DNA of 64,000 bases, taken from contig CALCYQ010000001.1 of assembly GCA_937906385.1 (NCBI GenBank), forward strand, positions 81,632-145,631. The letters are read 5' to 3'. Below are positions 15,223-19,478 of this stretch, one piece after another (positions within the stretch are counted from its first letter, which is position 1; every line of letters begins with the position of its first letter). This stretch comes from an uncultured Candidatus Saccharibacteria bacterium (GTDB lineage Bacteria > Patescibacteriota > Saccharimonadia > Saccharimonadales > Saccharimonadaceae). The position numbers were made by a program, and so were the translations under genes. The notes beneath the pieces were generated by a model. The model searched no databases and was not told where the DNA came from. It was given only the letters and a program-made list of their open reading frames with translations.

Positions 15223-15248
15223 TACCCCCGCTGAGGGGGTATTTTTTT
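15223..15248. terminator. Bidirectional intrinsic terminator
   Basis: taccccc/gggggta stem with gctga loop, A-run on the left and T7 on the right. Lies between convergent genes. Confidence 0.75.
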
Positions 15249-16248
15249 ATTCCAAACCTAAGTGTTTTTTCGCAAGGTCTGTCACGACGCGTCCGCGTGG
15301 CGTGCGCTGCAACATGCCAAGCTGAATCAAAAACGGCTCTAAATAATCTTCAATCGTCGAGGCTTCGTCGCCGGTTAGTGCTGCAATTGTATTTAGGCCG
15401 ACTGGTTTATCGCCGTATTTCTCAATCATCAATGTGAGCATGTTGCGGTCGGCCGGATCCAGGCCGAGCTCGTCAATCTCCAGCATGTCGAGCGCCTTTT
15501 TGGCGGTCGGCACATCTACGATACCATCACCATTCACGTCGGCGTAATCGCGCACACGCTTCAAAAGCCTGTTCGCGATGCGCGGCGTCAGGCGTGAGCG
15601 GGTGGCTAGCAACCTTGCGGCATCCGCGTCAATTTTAGTATCCAAAATCTTGGCCGAGCGCTCGATGATTTGCTGTATATCGCCATCGGCATAATACTCC
15701 AAGCGGTACGAATGACCAAAGCGATCGCGTAGCGGCCCAGCCAAATTGCCGGCTTGTGTGGTGGCGCCAATCAAAGTAAAGCGGGGAAGGTCGAGCTTCA
15801 CGCTGCGCGCGGCCGGTCCTTTACCAATCACGATATCAAGCTTGTAATCTTCCATCGCGGAGTAAAGAATCTCCTCCACGGCGCGGCGCAAACGATGAAT
15901 CTCGTCAATAAATAAAATGTCGCCATCGGTCAAGTTTGTCAGGATACTAGCAAGGTCGCCAGCTTTCTCAATCGACGGGGCAGAAGTAGCACGAAAATTT
16001 GCATTCATCTCGTGCGCAATCACGCCGGCCATAGTAGTCTTGCCAAGGCCTGGCGGACCATACAGAAGCACGTGATCCATTACATCGCCGCGTTTTTTCG
16101 CGGCATCAATCGCGAGCTTCAAATTAGTCTTCAAACGACGCTGGCCAATATATTCGTCAAAATTAGTCGGGCGCAGAGAAAACTCAACGGCACGTTCTTC
16201 GTTGTCGTCTTCGTGTAGACTGGTATCAATCACCCTCTCGATAGCCAT
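15247..16248 (-). CDS. ruvB: Holliday junction DNA helicase RuvB
   Basis: AAA+ Walker A (GPPGLGKTT), Walker B ([10 protein letters not shown]), RuvB C-terminal winged helix. Leaderless geometry on the minus strand: TGcTATAAT is the complement of 16255-16263, ATG at 16248. Confidence 0.95.
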
Positions 16249-16282
16249 ATCTGTATTATAGCACCTATGGTATAATAACTTA

Positions 16283-16349
16283 CAGAGGGATAGCTCTAGA
16301 AACTATCCCGATGGTTTGGATGAGTTAGCCTTTAGCTAACTCATTTTTT
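16283..16349 (+). ncRNA. sRNA unit 1 of a four-copy family (candidate antisense/antitoxin RNA)
   Basis: TGgTATAAT 16268-16276. Hairpin gggatag-CTCTAGAAA-ctatccc 16287-16309. Linker GATGGTTTGG. Terminator atgagttagc/gctaactcat plus T6 ending at 16349. The 5' end is predicted, not mapped. Confidence 0.55.
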
Positions 16350-16415
16350 CTAAACAAACCGGATACGGATTCGTAACTCCACTATCCACACTCGAATAGT
16401 AATCGTCACGTTCAT
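16350..16415 (-). CDS. Mini-ORF 1, 21 aa (MNVTITIRVWIVELRIRIRFV), candidate type I toxin-like peptide
   Basis: SD GAGGAAGG immediately upstream. The stop abuts the sRNA-1 terminator. Homologous to mini-ORFs 2 and 4, with synonymous codon differences. Confidence 0.45.
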   Translation of the reverse strand: MNVTITIRVWIVELRIRIRFV

Positions 16416-16587
16416 CCTTCCTCAGAGCGTCTAGTTATCTAGAATCCTGTTCATTGAAGCTCTGCGAGCTCAACAACAACTTCAATGCCAGCCCAAACCA
16501 TTAAGACACCATGCGGTGCGTTTCTGACTATATAGTCAATTACAAAACCGACAAGCATAAGTGCAATGGTTTTGGTATAATAGCATT

Positions 16588-16658
16588 AATGAGCGCAACT
16601 CTAGAAATTACGCTCGATGGTTTGGTTCGTCGCTATTTAATTAGCGACGAATTTTTTT
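16588..16658 (+). ncRNA. sRNA unit 2
   Basis: TGgTATAAT 16573-16581. Hairpin gagcgcaa-CTCTAGAAA-ttacgctc 16591-16615. Linker GATGGTTTGG. Terminator ttcgtcgcta/tagcgacgaa plus T7. Confidence 0.55.
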
Positions 16659-16721
16659 GAATTTCGGAAATCGAATTCCAAACTCCACACTGACGCCTAG
16701 GATAATTATCCGTACGCTCAT
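16641..16721 (-). CDS. Mini-ORF 2, 26 aa (MSVRIIILGVSVEFGIRFPKFKKIRR)
   Basis: SD GGAGGAA (complement of 16731-16737). The last 6 codons run through the sRNA-2 terminator hairpin. Confidence 0.45.
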   Translation of the reverse strand: MSVRIIILGVSVEFGIRFPKFKKIRR

Positions 16722-16898
16722 GTAAAGCACTTCCTCCGAGACCTCTAGCTATCTAGAATTACCGTTCAATGAAGCCTCAGCGAGCCGGGTTTCATTTGCG
16801 AATCGCAGGAACATTCAAACGGAGCAAACCTCAACCCCGAGCGAAAAGCTACCGTCAATCAATCGACAGCACAAGCATAAATACGATATAATATTATC

Positions 16899-16963
16899 AT
16901 TGAGAATAGCTCTAGAAACTATCCTCGGGTTGTTTTAGTTAGCCGTTACCGGCTAACTTTTTT
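16899..16963 (+). ncRNA. sRNA unit 3 (partner ORF deleted)
   Basis: TATAAT 16887-16892. Hairpin gagaatag-CTCTAGAAA-ctatcctc 16902-16926. Linker GGGTTGTTTT. Terminator agttagccg/cggctaact plus T5. Confidence 0.5.
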
Positions 16964-17031
16964 CGGCTTACGCACGAATCGAATTTCGGATTTCAACTAA
17001 GCATAAGTTCAAGATTTGGTATAATAACATT

Positions 17032-17102
17032 ATGGGCGCGTAACTAGGATTACGCCCAAAGTTTTGGTTTAAGTGACTCTCCTAACGGCGAGCCACTTTT
17101 TT
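17032..17102 (+). ncRNA. sRNA unit 4 (diverged copy)
   Basis: TGgTATAAT 17017-17025. Bulged hairpin gggcg(cg)taa-CTAGGA-ttacgccc 17034-17057. Linker AAAGTTTTGGTTTA. Imperfect terminator 17073-17096 plus T6. Confidence 0.5.
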
Positions 17103-17165
17103 ACGCTTCGTCACATCGATACTTAGCGTAACTCTCACGATCCACAACTTAATGCAGACACTCAA
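17082..17165 (-). CDS. Mini-ORF 4, 27 aa, TTG start (MSVCIKLWIVRVTLSIDVTKRKKVARR)
   Basis: SD GAAAGGAG with a 5-nt spacer to TTG. The 3' 21 nt lie inside the sRNA-4 terminator. Aligns with mini-ORF 2 (MSV.I....V.V...I...K.KK..RR). Confidence 0.4.
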   Translation of the reverse strand: MSVCIKLWIVRVTLSIDVTKRKKVARR

Positions 17166-17330
17166 ATCACTCCTTTCCCATGGACTCTAGCGAGGCCTAG
17201 TATGCTGTTTATTGAGTCCATGCGAGATGAACTTAATATTTGCGTAAGGGATAAACCAAGATTCCCGACTCAAAATAGCGTCAATAAAAATCGATTAAAA
17301 GCATAAGTTCAAGATTTTTCGCACAAACCC

Positions 17331-17564
17331 TATAAAAACAGATATAATAAAGGTGGAACTTACAATTTAACAATATATCGCGTTTTAGCTGACGCATTTT
17401 CGCGTTGCAAAAACTTTGATTGCAGCTCCCATAGGAGTCGGTCTTATAGTTTTTGCCTAAAACGCGAAATTGTAGGTTCCAGCCGGCGACTTGGGGGCTG
17501 CAATTTTTATTAAATTGCTGTGCCAAAAAATTATCAAACATAAGAGTAATTGGAACCTACGATT
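17331..17564 (+). promoter_or_regulatory. Promoter(s) and about 220-nt structured 5' leader of the Type III mod gene
   Basis: TTCAAG-17-TATAAA (17308-17336) and gaTATAAT (17343-17348). Helices: 17355-17366 with 17469-17480; 17379-17387 with 17458-17466; 17420-17430 with 17493-17503 followed by T5. Box GGAACCTAC is repeated at 17552-17560, directly before the ATG. Confidence 0.5.
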
Positions 17565-19478
17565 ATGAGCAGCCTCATTGAACTGCTACCAAAGGTAGTC
17601 AGTGAGGGGCGCAGAGAAGCAAATAGAATTTTGGACGGACTTTCTGCTGCGTCCCGTATTACTTTACAAACTAATGAACTTATTCAGCCGCACAAGGACC
17701 GCAGTCAGGCAGAAATCCTCAACGACGATATTGAATATGTTGACGATTGGAAGAATCGCCTAGTCTATGGCGATAATCTACTAGTCATGCAGGCACTTTT
17801 GGCTGGCGACCCGGCTTCGGGCCTACCTAGCATGCGCGGCAAAATTGACTTGATTTATATTGATCCGCCATATGATAGCAAGGCAGATTATCGTACGAAA
17901 ATAGAACTTCCGGGTGCGAATATTGACAGTAAACCGACCGTGCTTGAGCAGTTTGCTTACGCTGACACTTGGAGTGCGAACATTGATGGCGAAGACGTGA
18001 AGGGTACAGCTGCTTATTTAAAATATATGTATCCGCGGTTGGTAGTTATGAGAGAGCTCTTAAGTGAGCGGGGCAATATATGTGTTCATCTAGATTATCA
18101 TGTCGGCGCGTATATGCGCGTAATACTTGATGATATATTTGGTAAGGAAAATTTAAAAAATGAAATAATATGGGGCTATTCTGGCGGAGGAGTTTCAAAG
18201 AATAAATTTGCCCAGAAGCACGATACACTTTATTGTTACGCGAAAAGTAATGATTCGATTTTTAATGCTCAATATGCGCCATATTCTGAAAAATCCCAAG
18301 CTCTCATTAACTCAAGAGGAGGAACTAGTATTGATGGAAAAGAAAGAGATTTGGGCCGCGGAAAACATATGGAGGACTGGTGGGGCGATATACAATCACT
18401 TCAAACGTTTGATACGGAACGAGTTAATTATGGAACTCAGAAGCCAGAAAAACTATTGGAAAGAATAGAAAAGGCTTTTTCGAATAATGGCTCTATCGTC
18501 GCCGATTTCTTTGGCGGCTCCGGCACTACTGCTGCGGTAGCGGAAAAACTTGGCCGTAAATGGATTACTTCGGACATCGGCAAACCTGCCACTATGATTA
18601 TGCGCAAACGTTTCATCGATAACGACGCTGGTGAATTTCTATATCAATCCGTTGGCGATTATCAGCGCGAGCAAATGAGTACAAACTTTGGTACACGTTT
18701 CCGCGTTGGTGATTTAAATCAAATCGTCATTAACTTGTATGGTGCTGTTCCGTTCCGCGAAGAAGATAATCCGCGTCGCAACTTAGGCAAAATTCCGCGC
18801 ACGAAACGTCTCGTTTATGTCGCTTCGCCGTCGGAATTAGTTTCGGCAAATACCATCAAACGCGCGCTTGATGAAATGAATACTTTTCAGGGCGGATGGG
18901 ATAAAGTTGCATTGCTCGGCTGGAATTTCCGTAGCGACCTTGGCGCATATTTGGAAACGCTCGAAGAATACAAGAATGGTACGCTGACGATTGAAATTAT
19001 CCCGCCAGATCTTCTCGACCAATTGAAGAGCAAAACTACGTTTAAGAAACTTAGCGACCAAGTTGCGGTCGATCCAGACGGTACAATTCGTACACCAGTT
19101 CGCTTCTCATCACTCCAGTATCTCACCATTAAAGACCCAATCGTGAACGGCAACGAAATTACTGTAGAGCTAGATAACTATGTAATTTTATCTTCGGATT
19201 CTTTGCCACTCGATTCCAAGAATAAAGAAAAAATGAATGAAGTTATTGCGCGTGACCCGCTTGCACTAATTGAATATTGGTCTATCGATACCGACTTTGA
19301 CGGCAACGTCTTCCGCAGTACTTGGCAGGATTATCGCCAAAATACCGATAACGATAGTGACGCACTGCATGTCGTAAACAAAGTTACGCTCCCGCTTAAC
19401 AATACAACTGGCCTTATTGCTATCAGGGCAGTAGACGTCTTTGGCTTTGAAAGTGAAGTAATTGCAAGGATTGATTGA
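17565..19478 (+). CDS. mod: Type III restriction-modification DNA methyltransferase (Mod), N6-adenine/N4-cytosine beta class
   Basis: Motif [12 protein letters not shown] precedes motif [24 protein letters not shown]. About 640 aa and immediately followed by res. Start taken at ATG 17565 rather than TTG 17550. Confidence 0.9.

Follow-up and report, generated by a model that had tools for sequence, protein, structure and literature searches.

The short repeats in a 1.3-kb intergenic gap of the window, i.e. the whole 64,000-nt stretch of Saccharibacteria DNA analysed here, are genuine conserved parts of a cassette of gut Saccharibacteria that combines a peptide gene with an antisense RNA. Comparison of related modules suggests that the 3' UTR of the peptide mRNA itself is a better-supported partner of both motifs in its 5' UTR than docking of the small RNA (sRNA) near the Shine-Dalgarno sequence (SD). 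Most likely, the cassette is a type I toxin-antitoxin (TA)-like pair limited to one Saccharibacteria genus.

Results

Modules in the window

The intergenic gap contains three complete modules consisting of an sRNA and a peptide gene (modules 1, 2 and 4) as well as one orphan module. The 7-mer TCTAGAA is present in 34 copies on the same strand of the 962-kb genome, five of which are in the 1.3-kb gap, where ~0.05 were expected; no module context was found around the other copies elsewhere in the genome. An initial annotation had described the gap as an array of sRNA and mini-ORF modules with the architecture of type I TA systems, and we recovered this array with every repeat at the coordinates given for it. 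TCTAGAA is located at 16295-16301, 16600-16606, 16438-16444 and 16752-16758, and module 4 has CTAGGA at 17044-17049 and CTAG at 17187-17190 and 17197-17200. ATGGTTTGG (16311-16319) and CCAAACCAT (16493-16501) form a perfect 9-nt inverted repeat (I22 in the repeat search), which by itself is not significant; similarly, TTGGTTTA (17064-17071) pairs with TAAACCAA (17252-17259) and GGTTTG (16619-16624) with CAAACC (16825-16830). Finally, the two local hairpins, cattgaag (16452-16459)/cttcaatg (16480-16487) and catggactc (17179-17187)/gagtccatg (17214-17222), are present in the sequence.

In module 1, sRNA 1 (16268-16349, plus strand) has the extended -10 element TGGTATAAT (16268-16276) with a predicted start near 16283, followed by hairpin 1 (GGGATAG/CTATCCC with the loop CTCTAGAAA, 16294-16302), the linker GATGGTTTGG (16310-16319) and a terminator with a T-run (16320-16349). 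The TGnTATAAT promoter, hairpin 1 with its loop and the intrinsic terminator are conserved in 47 aligned sRNAs (alignment A1). Mini-ORF 1 (16350-16415, minus strand) encodes M(NV)TITIRVWIVELRIRIRFV, and the start of its relatives aligns with the GTG at 16409. The SD (16417-16424, minus strand) adjoins the 3' strand of a helix, here referred to as P_x (16423-16464, minus strand; GCUCUG 16423-16428/CAGAGC 16459-16464), and the P_x loop contains two CUAG sites, i.e. site 2 (CUAG, 16431-16434) and site 1 (UUCUAGA, 16438-16444). Further upstream in the mRNA, the 5'-leader motif AUGGUUUGG (16493-16501, minus strand) repeats the sRNA 1 linker in the same sense; it complements the mRNA 3' UTR and is paired with 16311-16319 in the MFE structure. 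A promoter for toxin 1 is predicted at 16527-16554 (minus strand; TTGTCG, 16 nt, TATAGT), and its conserved -10 element keeps a constant distance to the 5'-terminal hairpin GCACCGCAUGGUGU.

Module 2 has the same layout. sRNA 2 (16573-16658, plus strand) contains TGGTATAAT (16573-16581), the loop CTCTAGAAA (16599-16607) and the linker GATGGTTTGG (16616-16625) ahead of its terminator. Mini-ORF 2 (16641-16721, minus strand; MSVRIIILGVSVEFGIRFPKFKKIRR) has its stop codon within the terminator stem of sRNA 2 and differs from its G178 ortholog by four synonymous and three non-synonymous codons. P_x (16736-16780, minus strand) is formed by 16736-16745 and 16771-16780, with site 2 (CUAG) at 16745-16748 and site 1 (UUCUAGA) at 16752-16758. 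The loop of the 5'-hairpin carries GGUUUG (16825-16830, minus strand), which in relatives has changed to GUGUUUUG in linker and leader alike. Orphan sRNA 3 (16885-16963, plus strand) is without a partner ORF, and its hairpin (16906-16924) is identical at 19/19 positions to that of sRNA 1 (repeat D6).

In module 4, sRNA 4 (17017-17102, plus strand) contains TGGTATAAT (17017-17025), a hairpin with the stem GCGTAA/TTACGC and CTAGGA (17044-17049) in its loop, in which the hexamer is ACTAGG (17043-17048), and a linker that includes TTGGTTTA, followed by the terminator. Mini-ORF 4 (17082-17165, minus strand) encodes MSVCIKLWIVRVTLSIDVTKRKKVARR. The local hairpin catggactc/gagtccatg is part of helix P_x (17179-17222, minus strand; CAUGGACUC/GAGUCCAUG), with site 2 at 17187-17190. 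Site 1 is ACUAGG, corresponding to CCTAGT at 17196-17201 on the plus strand, and thus, at the DNA level, repeats the loop hexamer of sRNA 4 in inverted orientation; in the close relative L027, both elements have changed together to ACUAGA. The motif in the loop of the 5'-hairpin, UUGGUUUA (17252-17259, minus strand), repeats part of the sRNA 4 linker in the same sense.

The modules in the window adjoin a restriction-modification islet. That CTAG is a recognition site tied to the neighbouring type III system was considered and rejected because modules are also present in other genomic contexts.

The encoded peptides and the distribution of the cassette

We collected 68 + 25 module instances, i.e. 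~90 modules of the same genus, in which both motifs are kept at fixed positions. These modules encode 54 unique related peptides, and an SD precedes each ORF. The in-frame pN/pS ratio of the ORF is 0.56 compared with 1.87 and 3.11 in the other two frames, as is characteristic of coding conservation. The peptides have 19-28 residues and are strongly basic with a median net charge of +6. They lack the membrane span usual for type I toxins (their longest stretch without a charge covers 6 residues in the median and 12 at most) as well as a signal peptide, and in searches of Pfam and NCBIfam at E <= 10 no peptide matched any known toxin family. Moreover, they are not of the Fst type, which has a hydrophobic domain with PXXXG and a charged tail: no profile match was obtained and their composition is unlike that of Fst.

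A model of the sRNA (R1) matched 40 of 59 genomes of the genus and three of 151 genomes sampled across the family. R1 is a sequence-only model because RNAalifold identified no consensus pairs in the MAFFT alignment of the sRNAs, in which the register of the hairpin varies between subfamilies. For the same sRNAs, hairpins were counted per sequence instead of from the alignment, and segments anchored on CUAG were used since parsing of hairpin and linker by RNAfold was unreliable. A search with the Rfam covariance models yielded only three chance-level matches (E = 0.39-2.8), far below gathering scores. At the family level, weak BLAST matches (L005-L014, L018) contained no ORFs of the peptide family, and the sole matches resembling remote modules were L144 and L010 from two other genera. 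Scanning metagenomes with the pattern TGAACNGN{4,5}CTAGN{4,6}CTAG, which is too loose, gave 92 loci, none of which was module-like, i.e. chance matches; scanning viral contigs with a 14-mer from the loop also gave chance matches alone, and blastn against a phage collection gave no match. The cassette is found in multiple copies amplified in tandem, its distribution is patchy, and orphan sRNAs and decayed ORFs have been left behind.

Hairpin 1 of the sRNA and helix P_x of the mRNA

The sRNA has a predicted length of ~70 nt with a predicted promoter and terminator of its own, and is convergent with the 3' end of the peptide mRNA. The stop codon of the ORF is in or beside the terminator stem, and in all modules the sRNA is antisense to the 3' end of the mRNA. 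In all 76 distinct hairpin 1 sequences, CUAG is enclosed by a stem, of 7.9 bp on average; the stems are highly diverse and freely covarying, while CUAG and the A two bases later are invariant. Hairpin 1 has a mean dG of -11.5 kcal/mol in the mRNA sense vs -8.3 kcal/mol in the sRNA sense, with 96 vs 28 G-U pairs between the strand senses. It is more stable in the mRNA sense for 59 of 72 sequences (Wilcoxon p = 7e-10) and, counted by stem class, for 37 of 42, a bias partly due to conserved loop flanks and shared ancestry. The terminator hairpin, used as a control, had no strand bias (p = 0.22).

The terminator hairpin is followed by a T-run on the sRNA strand only, while the toxin strand continues CCAAACC...; it is thus not a bidirectional terminator, a trait of par and of the Fst-Ldr type. 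In the toxin direction, no U-tract was found behind either hairpin and, moreover, no Rho gene was found in the genome. Therefore, the mRNA should read through the sRNA gene. The genome encodes RNase III and lacks Hfq.

In the 5' UTR, helix P_x covaries (34 distinct strand pairs) in nearly all modules, and its 3' strand adjoins the SD. Site 1 is present in every module 31-41 nt upstream of the start and is located in the apical loop of P_x, 12-15 nt upstream of the SD. The 5' UTR contains two islands, i.e. the hexamer NCUAGN in the apical loop of P_x and (U)GGUUU(G) in or beside the 5'-terminal hairpin. In line with the initial annotation, GGUUU and the SD-proximal CUAG behave as conserved functional islands, and both are same-sense copies of parts of the sRNA, i.e. 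the hairpin 1 loop and the linker. We also considered that the two CUAG sites pair as a local mini-hairpin; this was rejected because site 2 is lost in five modules and the flanks covary in type E only, and the conservation of site 1 is therefore not explained by such a mini-hairpin.

Relation between the sRNA loop and site 1

The initial annotation proposed that the sRNA loop is perfectly complementary to the 5' UTR upstream of the SD. Such pairing extends over 7 bp in modules 1 and 2; in module 4, it is limited to 4 bp. This contact was not supported in the form proposed: rather than as half of a complementary repeat pair, site 1 behaves as a copy of the sRNA loop in the same RNA sense, and where it is not palindromic it follows the loop letter for letter (loop/site 1 hexamers: ACUAGG/ACUAGG, CCUAGA/CCUAGA, ACUAGA/ACUAGA and UCUAGG/UCUAGG). 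In these variants, Watson-Crick pairing between the sRNA and site 1 shrinks to the 4-nt core, while 5-6 bp remain between site 1 and the antisense of the sRNA loop, i.e. the hairpin in the 3' UTR of the mRNA. Because UCUAGA is palindromic, direct docking of the sRNA is possible in modules 1 and 2. Similarly, the analogy to the DRa/DRb repeats of par, also suggested in the initial annotation, applies where the hexamer is palindromic and breaks down elsewhere, since non-palindromic site 1 copies the loop in the same sense. Moreover, no repeats complementary to the translation initiation region, as in par, were found; the repeat is 12-15 nt upstream of the SD.

Compensatory changes in orthologous modules, which the direct contact predicted, were not observed: where the loop flanks have changed, site 1 shows the identical and not the complementary change. 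In 66/66 modules, sRNA loop and site 1 share the base that follows CUAG. On the module tree, this base has changed four times and all of the 3-4 independent pairs co-changed, a number that is too small for a sign test to reach 0.05. At the base before CUAG, loop and site 1 have changed together in four lineages (type E, L029, L038 and the clade of module 4), a match in only four of ~12 changed lineages. Duplex energies, calculated for one representative per class, follow the same pattern: duplexes between site 1 and the antisense of the loop are at -7.1 kcal/mol for cognate and -6.2 kcal/mol for non-cognate combinations, while those between site 1 and the sRNA loop are at -6.1 and -7.1 kcal/mol, respectively, the cognate ones being weaker.

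Pairing between the two ends of the mRNA

Because both islands are same-sense copies of the sRNA, they are complementary to the 3' UTR of their own mRNA. The second claim of the initial annotation, i.e. that the mRNA folds back 5' to 3' and that the sRNA carries the sequence of the 5' partner, gained support from two observations. Cognate linkers and leaders have a longest common substring of 6.1 nt on average, non-cognate ones of 5.4 nt (permutation p = 1e-4 overall and 0.026 within type). Moreover, RNAalifold predicts the 5'-3' helix of the mRNA, in two subfamilies only (types A and E). The two contacts cross (a < b < a' < b'), and a pseudoknot-like or alternating arrangement would therefore be needed. 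Masking the sRNA-bound region in RNAfold caused no consistent shift in mean SD accessibility (0.36-0.48 vs 0.35-0.51 unmasked).

Discussion

We propose a two-point fold-back of the mRNA with the sRNA competing for the 3' UTR, a reading for and against which we consider the chances evenly balanced. Both strands of the module would be transcribed: an sRNA driven by the strong TGnTATAAT promoter would run convergently into the 3' end of the mRNA for the basic peptide. The part of the 3' UTR that is antisense to the sRNA would present AAACC followed by a hairpin, H1', with the loop YCUAG, and in the full-length mRNA, the presumed extent of which includes this part, the 3' UTR would touch the 5' UTR at the GGUUU and CUAG points. 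The sRNA, being perfectly complementary to the 3' segment, would take the place of the 5' UTR there, and the resulting long duplex would be a substrate for the genome-encoded RNase III. The outcome would be an altered structure close to the SD and/or destruction of the mRNA. In modules 1 and 2, where the hexamer is UCUAGA, direct kissing between the sRNA loop and the 5' UTR could occur in addition.

Alternatively, such kissing could be the main event, i.e. the hairpin 1 loop, with a YUNR-type CUAG turn, would contact the CUAG upstream of the SD and block ribosome loading, and the 3' overlap would serve only for initial docking or decay; the mechanism would resemble that of par DRa/DRb or of SprA1AS, which acts via a 5' domain outside the overlap. 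There are precedents in par (PMC7472228) and SprA1/SprA1AS (PMC8167048), site 1 is in an apical loop close to the SD, and 7 Watson-Crick bp (UCUAGAA with UUCUAGA) are possible in ~24 modules of types A, B and D. Moreover, the A that invariably follows CUAGR in the sRNA can form a base pair with the likewise invariant U located two bases ahead of site 1, and, including G-U pairs, the pairing between sRNA and 5' UTR reaches 13 bp in L037 and L040 and 9 bp in L043, L052 and L058; the invariant bases and the 13-bp pairings argue against the fold-back. By contrast, only the 4-nt palindromic core is available in module 4 of the window, type E, L029, L038 and most of type C; the identical changes in loop flanks and site 1, the on average weaker cognate sRNA-site duplexes and a hairpin 1 optimised on the opposite strand also argue against this contact, which we regard as possible but rather doubtful.

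It is improbable that CUAG and GGUUU are recognised or cleaved by a protein factor (such as an RNase, an RNA chaperone or the ribosome), with the sRNA acting via its antisense overlap alone and its loop perhaps also relating to the 3' flank of 16S rRNA (CCUCCUUUCUAGAG). As a common trans-acting factor would impose, the cores of both motifs are invariant across all subfamilies; moreover, in this genome the sRNA loop CUCUAGAAA is complementary over 9 nt to the 16S 3' flank, and the toxin SDs (AGAAAGGAG, AGAAAG) pair with the same rRNA tail. However, the flanks of the motifs vary by module, UCUAGA and ACUAGG coexist in the window, and the cognate-specific matches go beyond a single trans factor. 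The peptide, the toxicity of which is putative, could also be a non-toxic small protein or be aimed at the host bacterium of the epibiont, with the antisense RNA and the fold-back tuning its expression. The absence of a membrane span, the high net charge and the lack of matches to known toxin families fit such a function; the multi-copy, tandem and patchy occurrence, the orphan sRNAs, the decayed ORFs and the restriction-modification islet are, however, typical of selfish type I TA systems, and the peptides lack signal peptides, making this explanation highly improbable.

If the fold-back of the mRNA and the competition by the sRNA are correct, the cassette represents a variant of type I logic in which the antitoxin mimics the mRNA 5' UTR. 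Tentatively, and with less confidence than in the fold-back itself, we suggest a Saccharibacteria-specific TA system in which an sRNA that mimics two 5'-UTR elements competes with them for the 3' UTR of the mRNA and so opens or replaces a two-point 5'-3' lock rather than masking the ribosome site, and in which the basic non-membrane peptide of ~27 residues acts on a non-membrane target; such peptides would represent a novel class of toxin candidates. Regulation by RNA is almost uncharted in these tiny epibionts, the genome analysed here is without Hfq and Rho, and our full-text literature searches found no RNA-controlled TA system in Saccharibacteria or other Patescibacteria. The ~90 natural variants, including the non-palindromic module 4, already separate the two regulatory models. 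For annotation, the modules mark unannotated units of ~300 bp in gut Saccharibacteria as genes.

The cassette shares features with several known systems. As in par of Enterococcus faecalis pAD1 (fst RNA I/RNA II), convergent promoters flank a terminator hairpin region common to both RNAs, the loop is of the YUNR type, short repeats relate the sRNA to the 5' part of the toxin mRNA, and a 5' hairpin or helix protects the mRNA end (PMC7472228). However, the par repeats are complementary across the start codon and the SD, while those of the cassette are upstream of the SD with same-sense flanks; moreover, the cassette has a U-tract in the sRNA direction only and its peptide is not Fst-like. In sprA1/SprA1AS of Staphylococcus aureus, the RNAs also overlap at their 3' ends, and a short non-overlapping complementarity to the 5' UTR could do functional work (PMC8167048), a likeness that matches the direct contact of the initial annotation. 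The 5' domain of SprA1AS, however, pairs across the SD and start codon, while the site in the cassette is upstream of the SD, offers 4-7 bp and is without compensatory support.

The cassette resembles bsrG/SR4 of Bacillus subtilis, as well as txpA/RatA, bsrE/SR5 and yonT/SR6, in its convergent genes and in an antitoxin antisense to the 3' end of the toxin mRNA. As a precedent for the fold-back, bsrG mRNA has a long-range 5'-3' helix, P1; binding of the 3'-overlapping antitoxin to the 3' arm of this helix alters the structure of the SD region ~100 nt away, and the duplex is a target of degradation by RNase III (PMC3834814). For the cassette, a corresponding fold-back is proposed, apparently with two short separate contacts, one of which is loop-loop, instead of one long helix, and the in silico analysis did not reproduce a restructured SD region. 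Moreover, there is no homology in sequence or peptide, BsrG being a hydrophobic membrane peptide of 38 aa in contrast to the basic peptides without a membrane helix, and SR4 has ~180 nt compared with ~70 nt for the sRNA.

Finally, the proposed fold-back is reminiscent of toxin mRNAs whose 5' and 3' ends pair and thereby lock the full-length transcript. In hok/sok of plasmid R1, such a lock is present on the full-length mRNA, and kissing loops are part of antitoxin recognition. Similarly, in aapA1/IsoA1 of Helicobacter pylori, a further precedent, a 5'-3' long-distance interaction locks the AapA1 mRNA, and kissing loops take part in recognition of the antitoxin (PMC8167048). In both systems, however, the 5' region is the pairing partner of the antitoxin, and the lock is released by processing at the 3' end; moreover, the cassette differs from hok/sok in having no mok-like leader ORF. 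The sRNA of the cassette, by contrast, is antisense to the 3' part of the presumed lock itself and would therefore compete with the lock directly.

Organization of the locus

Four tandem units lie in a 1.3-kb gap that has ruvB (15247-16248, minus strand) on one side and, on the other, a type III mod/res pair together with a DUF2726 gene. Each unit is a predicted sRNA gene composed, in this order, of an extended -10 promoter (TGGTATAAT; in unit 3 the variant GATATAAT), a hairpin with a CUAG loop (hairpin 1), a GGUUU-bearing linker and an intrinsic terminator. Units 1, 2 and 4 are faced by convergent mini-ORFs on the minus strand with Shine-Dalgarno (SD) sequences (MTITIRVWIVELRIRIRFV, MSVRIIILGVSVEFGIRFPKFKKIRR, MSVCIKLWIVRVTLSIDVTKRKKVARR), and the stop codons of these mini-ORFs lie inside or adjoin the sRNA terminator stem; unit 3 is an orphan sRNA without a mini-ORF.

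[quoted passage not shown] All of its repeat coordinates were correct when checked against the sequence, and this extends to the two local hairpins and to the weaker pairs of modules 2 and 4. TCTAGAA is present on the plus strand in the sRNA hairpin loops (16295-16301 and 16600-16606) and again at 16438-16444 and 16752-16758, where 14-15 nt separate it from the complement of a mini-ORF SD. A perfect inverted repeat of 9 nt (I22) consists of ATGGTTTGG (16311-16319) and CCAAACCAT (16493-16501). Of the 34 copies of TCTAGAA that the 962-kb genome has on this strand, five are within the 1.3-kb gap; none of the copies beyond it has a module context.

Orphan sRNA 3 has a hairpin (16906-16924) that matches the hairpin of sRNA 1 (16290-16308) at 19/19 positions (direct repeat D6) and, given this identity, the 3' UTR of the putative toxin mRNA 1 could be a trans target of sRNA 3. 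A AAGCATAAGT box (direct repeat family D2; 16551-16567, 16871-16887, 16997-17013, 17297-17313 and 17534-17550) is found at every module border, with two copies flanking the mod leader. Relatives keep the box in the form TGAACTYRTGCTTTT ahead of the -10 of the toxin promoter, and it overlaps the -35 regions of both divergent promoters, toxin and sRNA. The type III mod leader (17299-17567) is strongly conserved (93%, 84% and 77% identity in genomes G178, G149 and G199, respectively) and contains nested, mutually exclusive inverted repeats (I5, I6, I7, I9 and I13), one arm of which overlaps the mod start-codon region; it resembles a regulatory leader in its own right.

Distribution and encoded peptides

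The modules lie in a Candidatus Saccharibacteria assembly of 0.96 Mb, whose closest relatives are ruminant-gut MAGs. By BLAST, homologous modules were detected in 30/59 genomes of the genus; R1, a sequence-only model of the sRNA, had matches at ~97 places in 40/59 of these genomes and, in a family-wide sample, in only 3/151. Metagenome contigs, viral contigs and a phage collection yielded no additions. We extracted 68 + 25 module instances, 66 of which could be scored for sRNA, 5' UTR and ORF together. Many copies are decayed (L151, L161, L163, L167, L149 and the first module of L157), with internal stops in or truncation of the ORF beside an intact sRNA, or with orphan sRNAs only. Such a pattern is consistent with turnover during which the antitoxin persists longer than the toxin gene.

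The peptides fall into subfamilies A to G, and their pN/pS is 0.56 in frame and 1.9 and 3.1 in the two alternative frames. They are basic, with a median net charge of +6, and analysis of charge and uncharged runs revealed no membrane-spanning stretch, the longest uncharged run having a median of 6 residues.

Conserved elements of the two RNAs

In all 76 distinct sequences, hairpin 1 has CUAG at the centre of its fold, with 7.9 bp on average and freely varying stems, and both CUAG and the A two bases downstream are invariant in 47 aligned sRNAs. At the predicted 5' end of the mRNA, a conserved -10 box is at a fixed spacing from a 5'-terminal hairpin, and (U)GGUUU(G) is located in the loop of this hairpin (types B and C) or directly after it (type A). 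Further downstream, an SD-proximal helix, P_x, is supported by covariation (34 distinct strand pairs, 5-10 bp); its 3' strand abuts the SD and its 5' strand is preceded by CUCGC, which is conserved across nearly all subfamilies. The P_x apical loop contains CUAG in every module, 31-41 nt upstream of the start (site 1). The same loop has a second copy 8-10 nt beyond site 1 (site 2), which shares bases with the 3' strand of P_x and is missing in five modules.

The local hairpin previously noted in module 4 is the covarying P_x, whereas that in module 1 (cattgaag/cttcaatg, 16452-16487) is an adjacent helix, inside which lies the 5' strand of P_x (16423-16464). Together, this helix and P_x would form an H-type pseudoknot or act as alternative helices.

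Remote modules are present in two other genera. L144 (genome G144) keeps UCUAGG in the sRNA loop and site 1. L010 (genome G011) has an sRNA hairpin without CUAG; its sRNA and 5' region have the 7-mer GCGCAAG and the 8-mer CAATATGG in common, both same-sense.

The sRNA loop and site 1 are same-sense copies

CUAG is palindromic, so that the choice of pairing strands depends on its flanks. The site 1 hexamer is a same-sense copy of the sRNA loop hexamer (loop/site 1: UCUAGA/UCUAGA, 24 modules; UCUAGG/UCUAGG, 15; CCUAGA/CCUAGA, 4; ACUAGG/ACUAGG, 3; ACUAGA/ACUAGA, 1). The base 3' of CUAG is the same in both elements in 66/66 modules, with the loop of L144 read as UCUAGG. On a module tree for which the hexamer was masked, four changes of this base are seen in each element, giving 3-4 independent pairs that all co-change, which are too few for a significant sign test. 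The base 5' of CUAG underwent an identical replacement in loop and site 1 in four lineages (type E, L029, L038 and the module-4 clade) and changed in a single element in ~8 others. Module 4 is a direct case of the same-sense rule, in that ACTAGG (17043-17048) and CCTAGT (17196-17201) form an inverted repeat; in its close relative L027, ACUAGA is found in sRNA loop and site 1 alike.

As a consequence, the loop and site 1 can form 7 Watson-Crick bp in palindromic modules, including modules 1 and 2 of the window, but only 4 bp in module 4, type E, L029, L038 and most of type C. By contrast, the antisense of the loop forms 5-6 Watson-Crick bp with site 1 in all modules. With one representative per class, the duplex energy of the antisense loop with site 1 was better for cognate than for non-cognate pairs (-7.1 vs -6.2 kcal/mol), while that of the sRNA loop itself was worse (-6.1 vs -7.1 kcal/mol).

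In total, these comparisons do not favour a direct sRNA contact near the SD. Where the hexamer is palindromic, the loop could still kiss site 1 directly, for which par (PMC7472228) and SprA1AS (PMC8167048) provide precedents; in favour of such kissing, the invariant A of the sRNA can pair with an invariant U of the 5' UTR, and a few modules have matches of 9-13 bp when G-U pairs are counted. A common trans-acting factor that recognizes the motifs cannot explain the module-specific variation of the flanks.

Probable antisense hairpin in the peptide mRNA and a proposed fold-back

In this 99%-complete genome, no Rho gene was found, and there is no U-tract downstream of either hairpin in the toxin direction; therefore, transcription should run through the sRNA gene. 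Moreover, hairpin 1 folds better on the mRNA strand than on the sRNA strand in 59/72 sequences (Wilcoxon p = 7e-10) and 37/42 stem classes (mean -11.5 vs -8.3 kcal/mol), with 96 vs 28 G-U pairs, a bias that stems partly from conserved loop flanks and shared ancestry. Since a G-U pair on one strand is a C-A mismatch on the other, such a bias marks the strand of the selected fold. Finally, the terminator hairpin, used as a control, had no strand bias (p = 0.22). By these three lines of evidence, the peptide mRNA probably contains the antisense hairpin (H1') in its 3' UTR. The same genome encodes RNase III, and Hfq was not detected in it; with neither Rho nor Hfq, termination and sRNA action must do without both factors.

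The 3' end of the 16S rRNA with its flank (own genome, G000:C4 ~237812-237830, minus strand) reads CCUCCUUUCUAGAG, and its last 9 nt are exactly complementary to the loop CUCUAGAAA of the sRNA (16294-16302) and identical to the antisense-hairpin loop of the toxin mRNA. This rRNA tail also pairs with the toxin SDs, AGAAAGGAG and AGAAAG. Such a match may be a coincidence or a hint of anti-SD mimicry.

The predicted 5'-3' fold-back fared better than the first contact. That the sRNA linker and the mRNA leader are copies in the same sense had been recognised in the initial annotation. The longest stretch identical between sRNA linker and mRNA leader averaged 6.1 nt in cognate vs 5.4 nt in non-cognate pairs (permutation p = 1e-4 overall, 0.026 within subfamilies), and linker and leader changed jointly in L029 (AUGG to GUGG) and in a type B subgroup (GGUUUG to GUGUUUUG). 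In types E and A, the matches reach 8-10 nt and RNAalifold predicts the 5'-3' helix, which is also part of the MFE fold of module 1 of the window. These observations support the proposed fold-back of the peptide mRNA.

A proposed mechanism and its relation to known systems

Both 5'-UTR islands are complementary to the predicted 3' UTR of the same mRNA, and the AAACC stretch with the adjoining H1' (loop YCUAG) is exactly the segment antisense to the sRNA. We infer a two-point fold-back that is opened by a competing sRNA: the full-length mRNA would fold its 5' UTR on its 3' UTR at two points; the sRNA, fully complementary to the 3' segment, would outcompete this fold-back, freeing or remodelling the SD-proximal P_x region; and the resulting duplex would be a substrate for RNase III. 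A weak point is that the two contacts cross topologically; in addition, independent co-changes behind the same-sense rule are few, and masking the sRNA-bound region in silico had no consistent effect on the SD.

[quoted passage not shown] We regard the cassette as a new family within a known kind of system. Its nearest likeness is bsrG/SR4, in which the antitoxin binds a 5'-3' helix at its 3' arm and alters the SD structure (PMC3834814). Similarly, the 5'-3' locks of aapA1 (PMC8167048) and hok resemble the fold-back proposed here.
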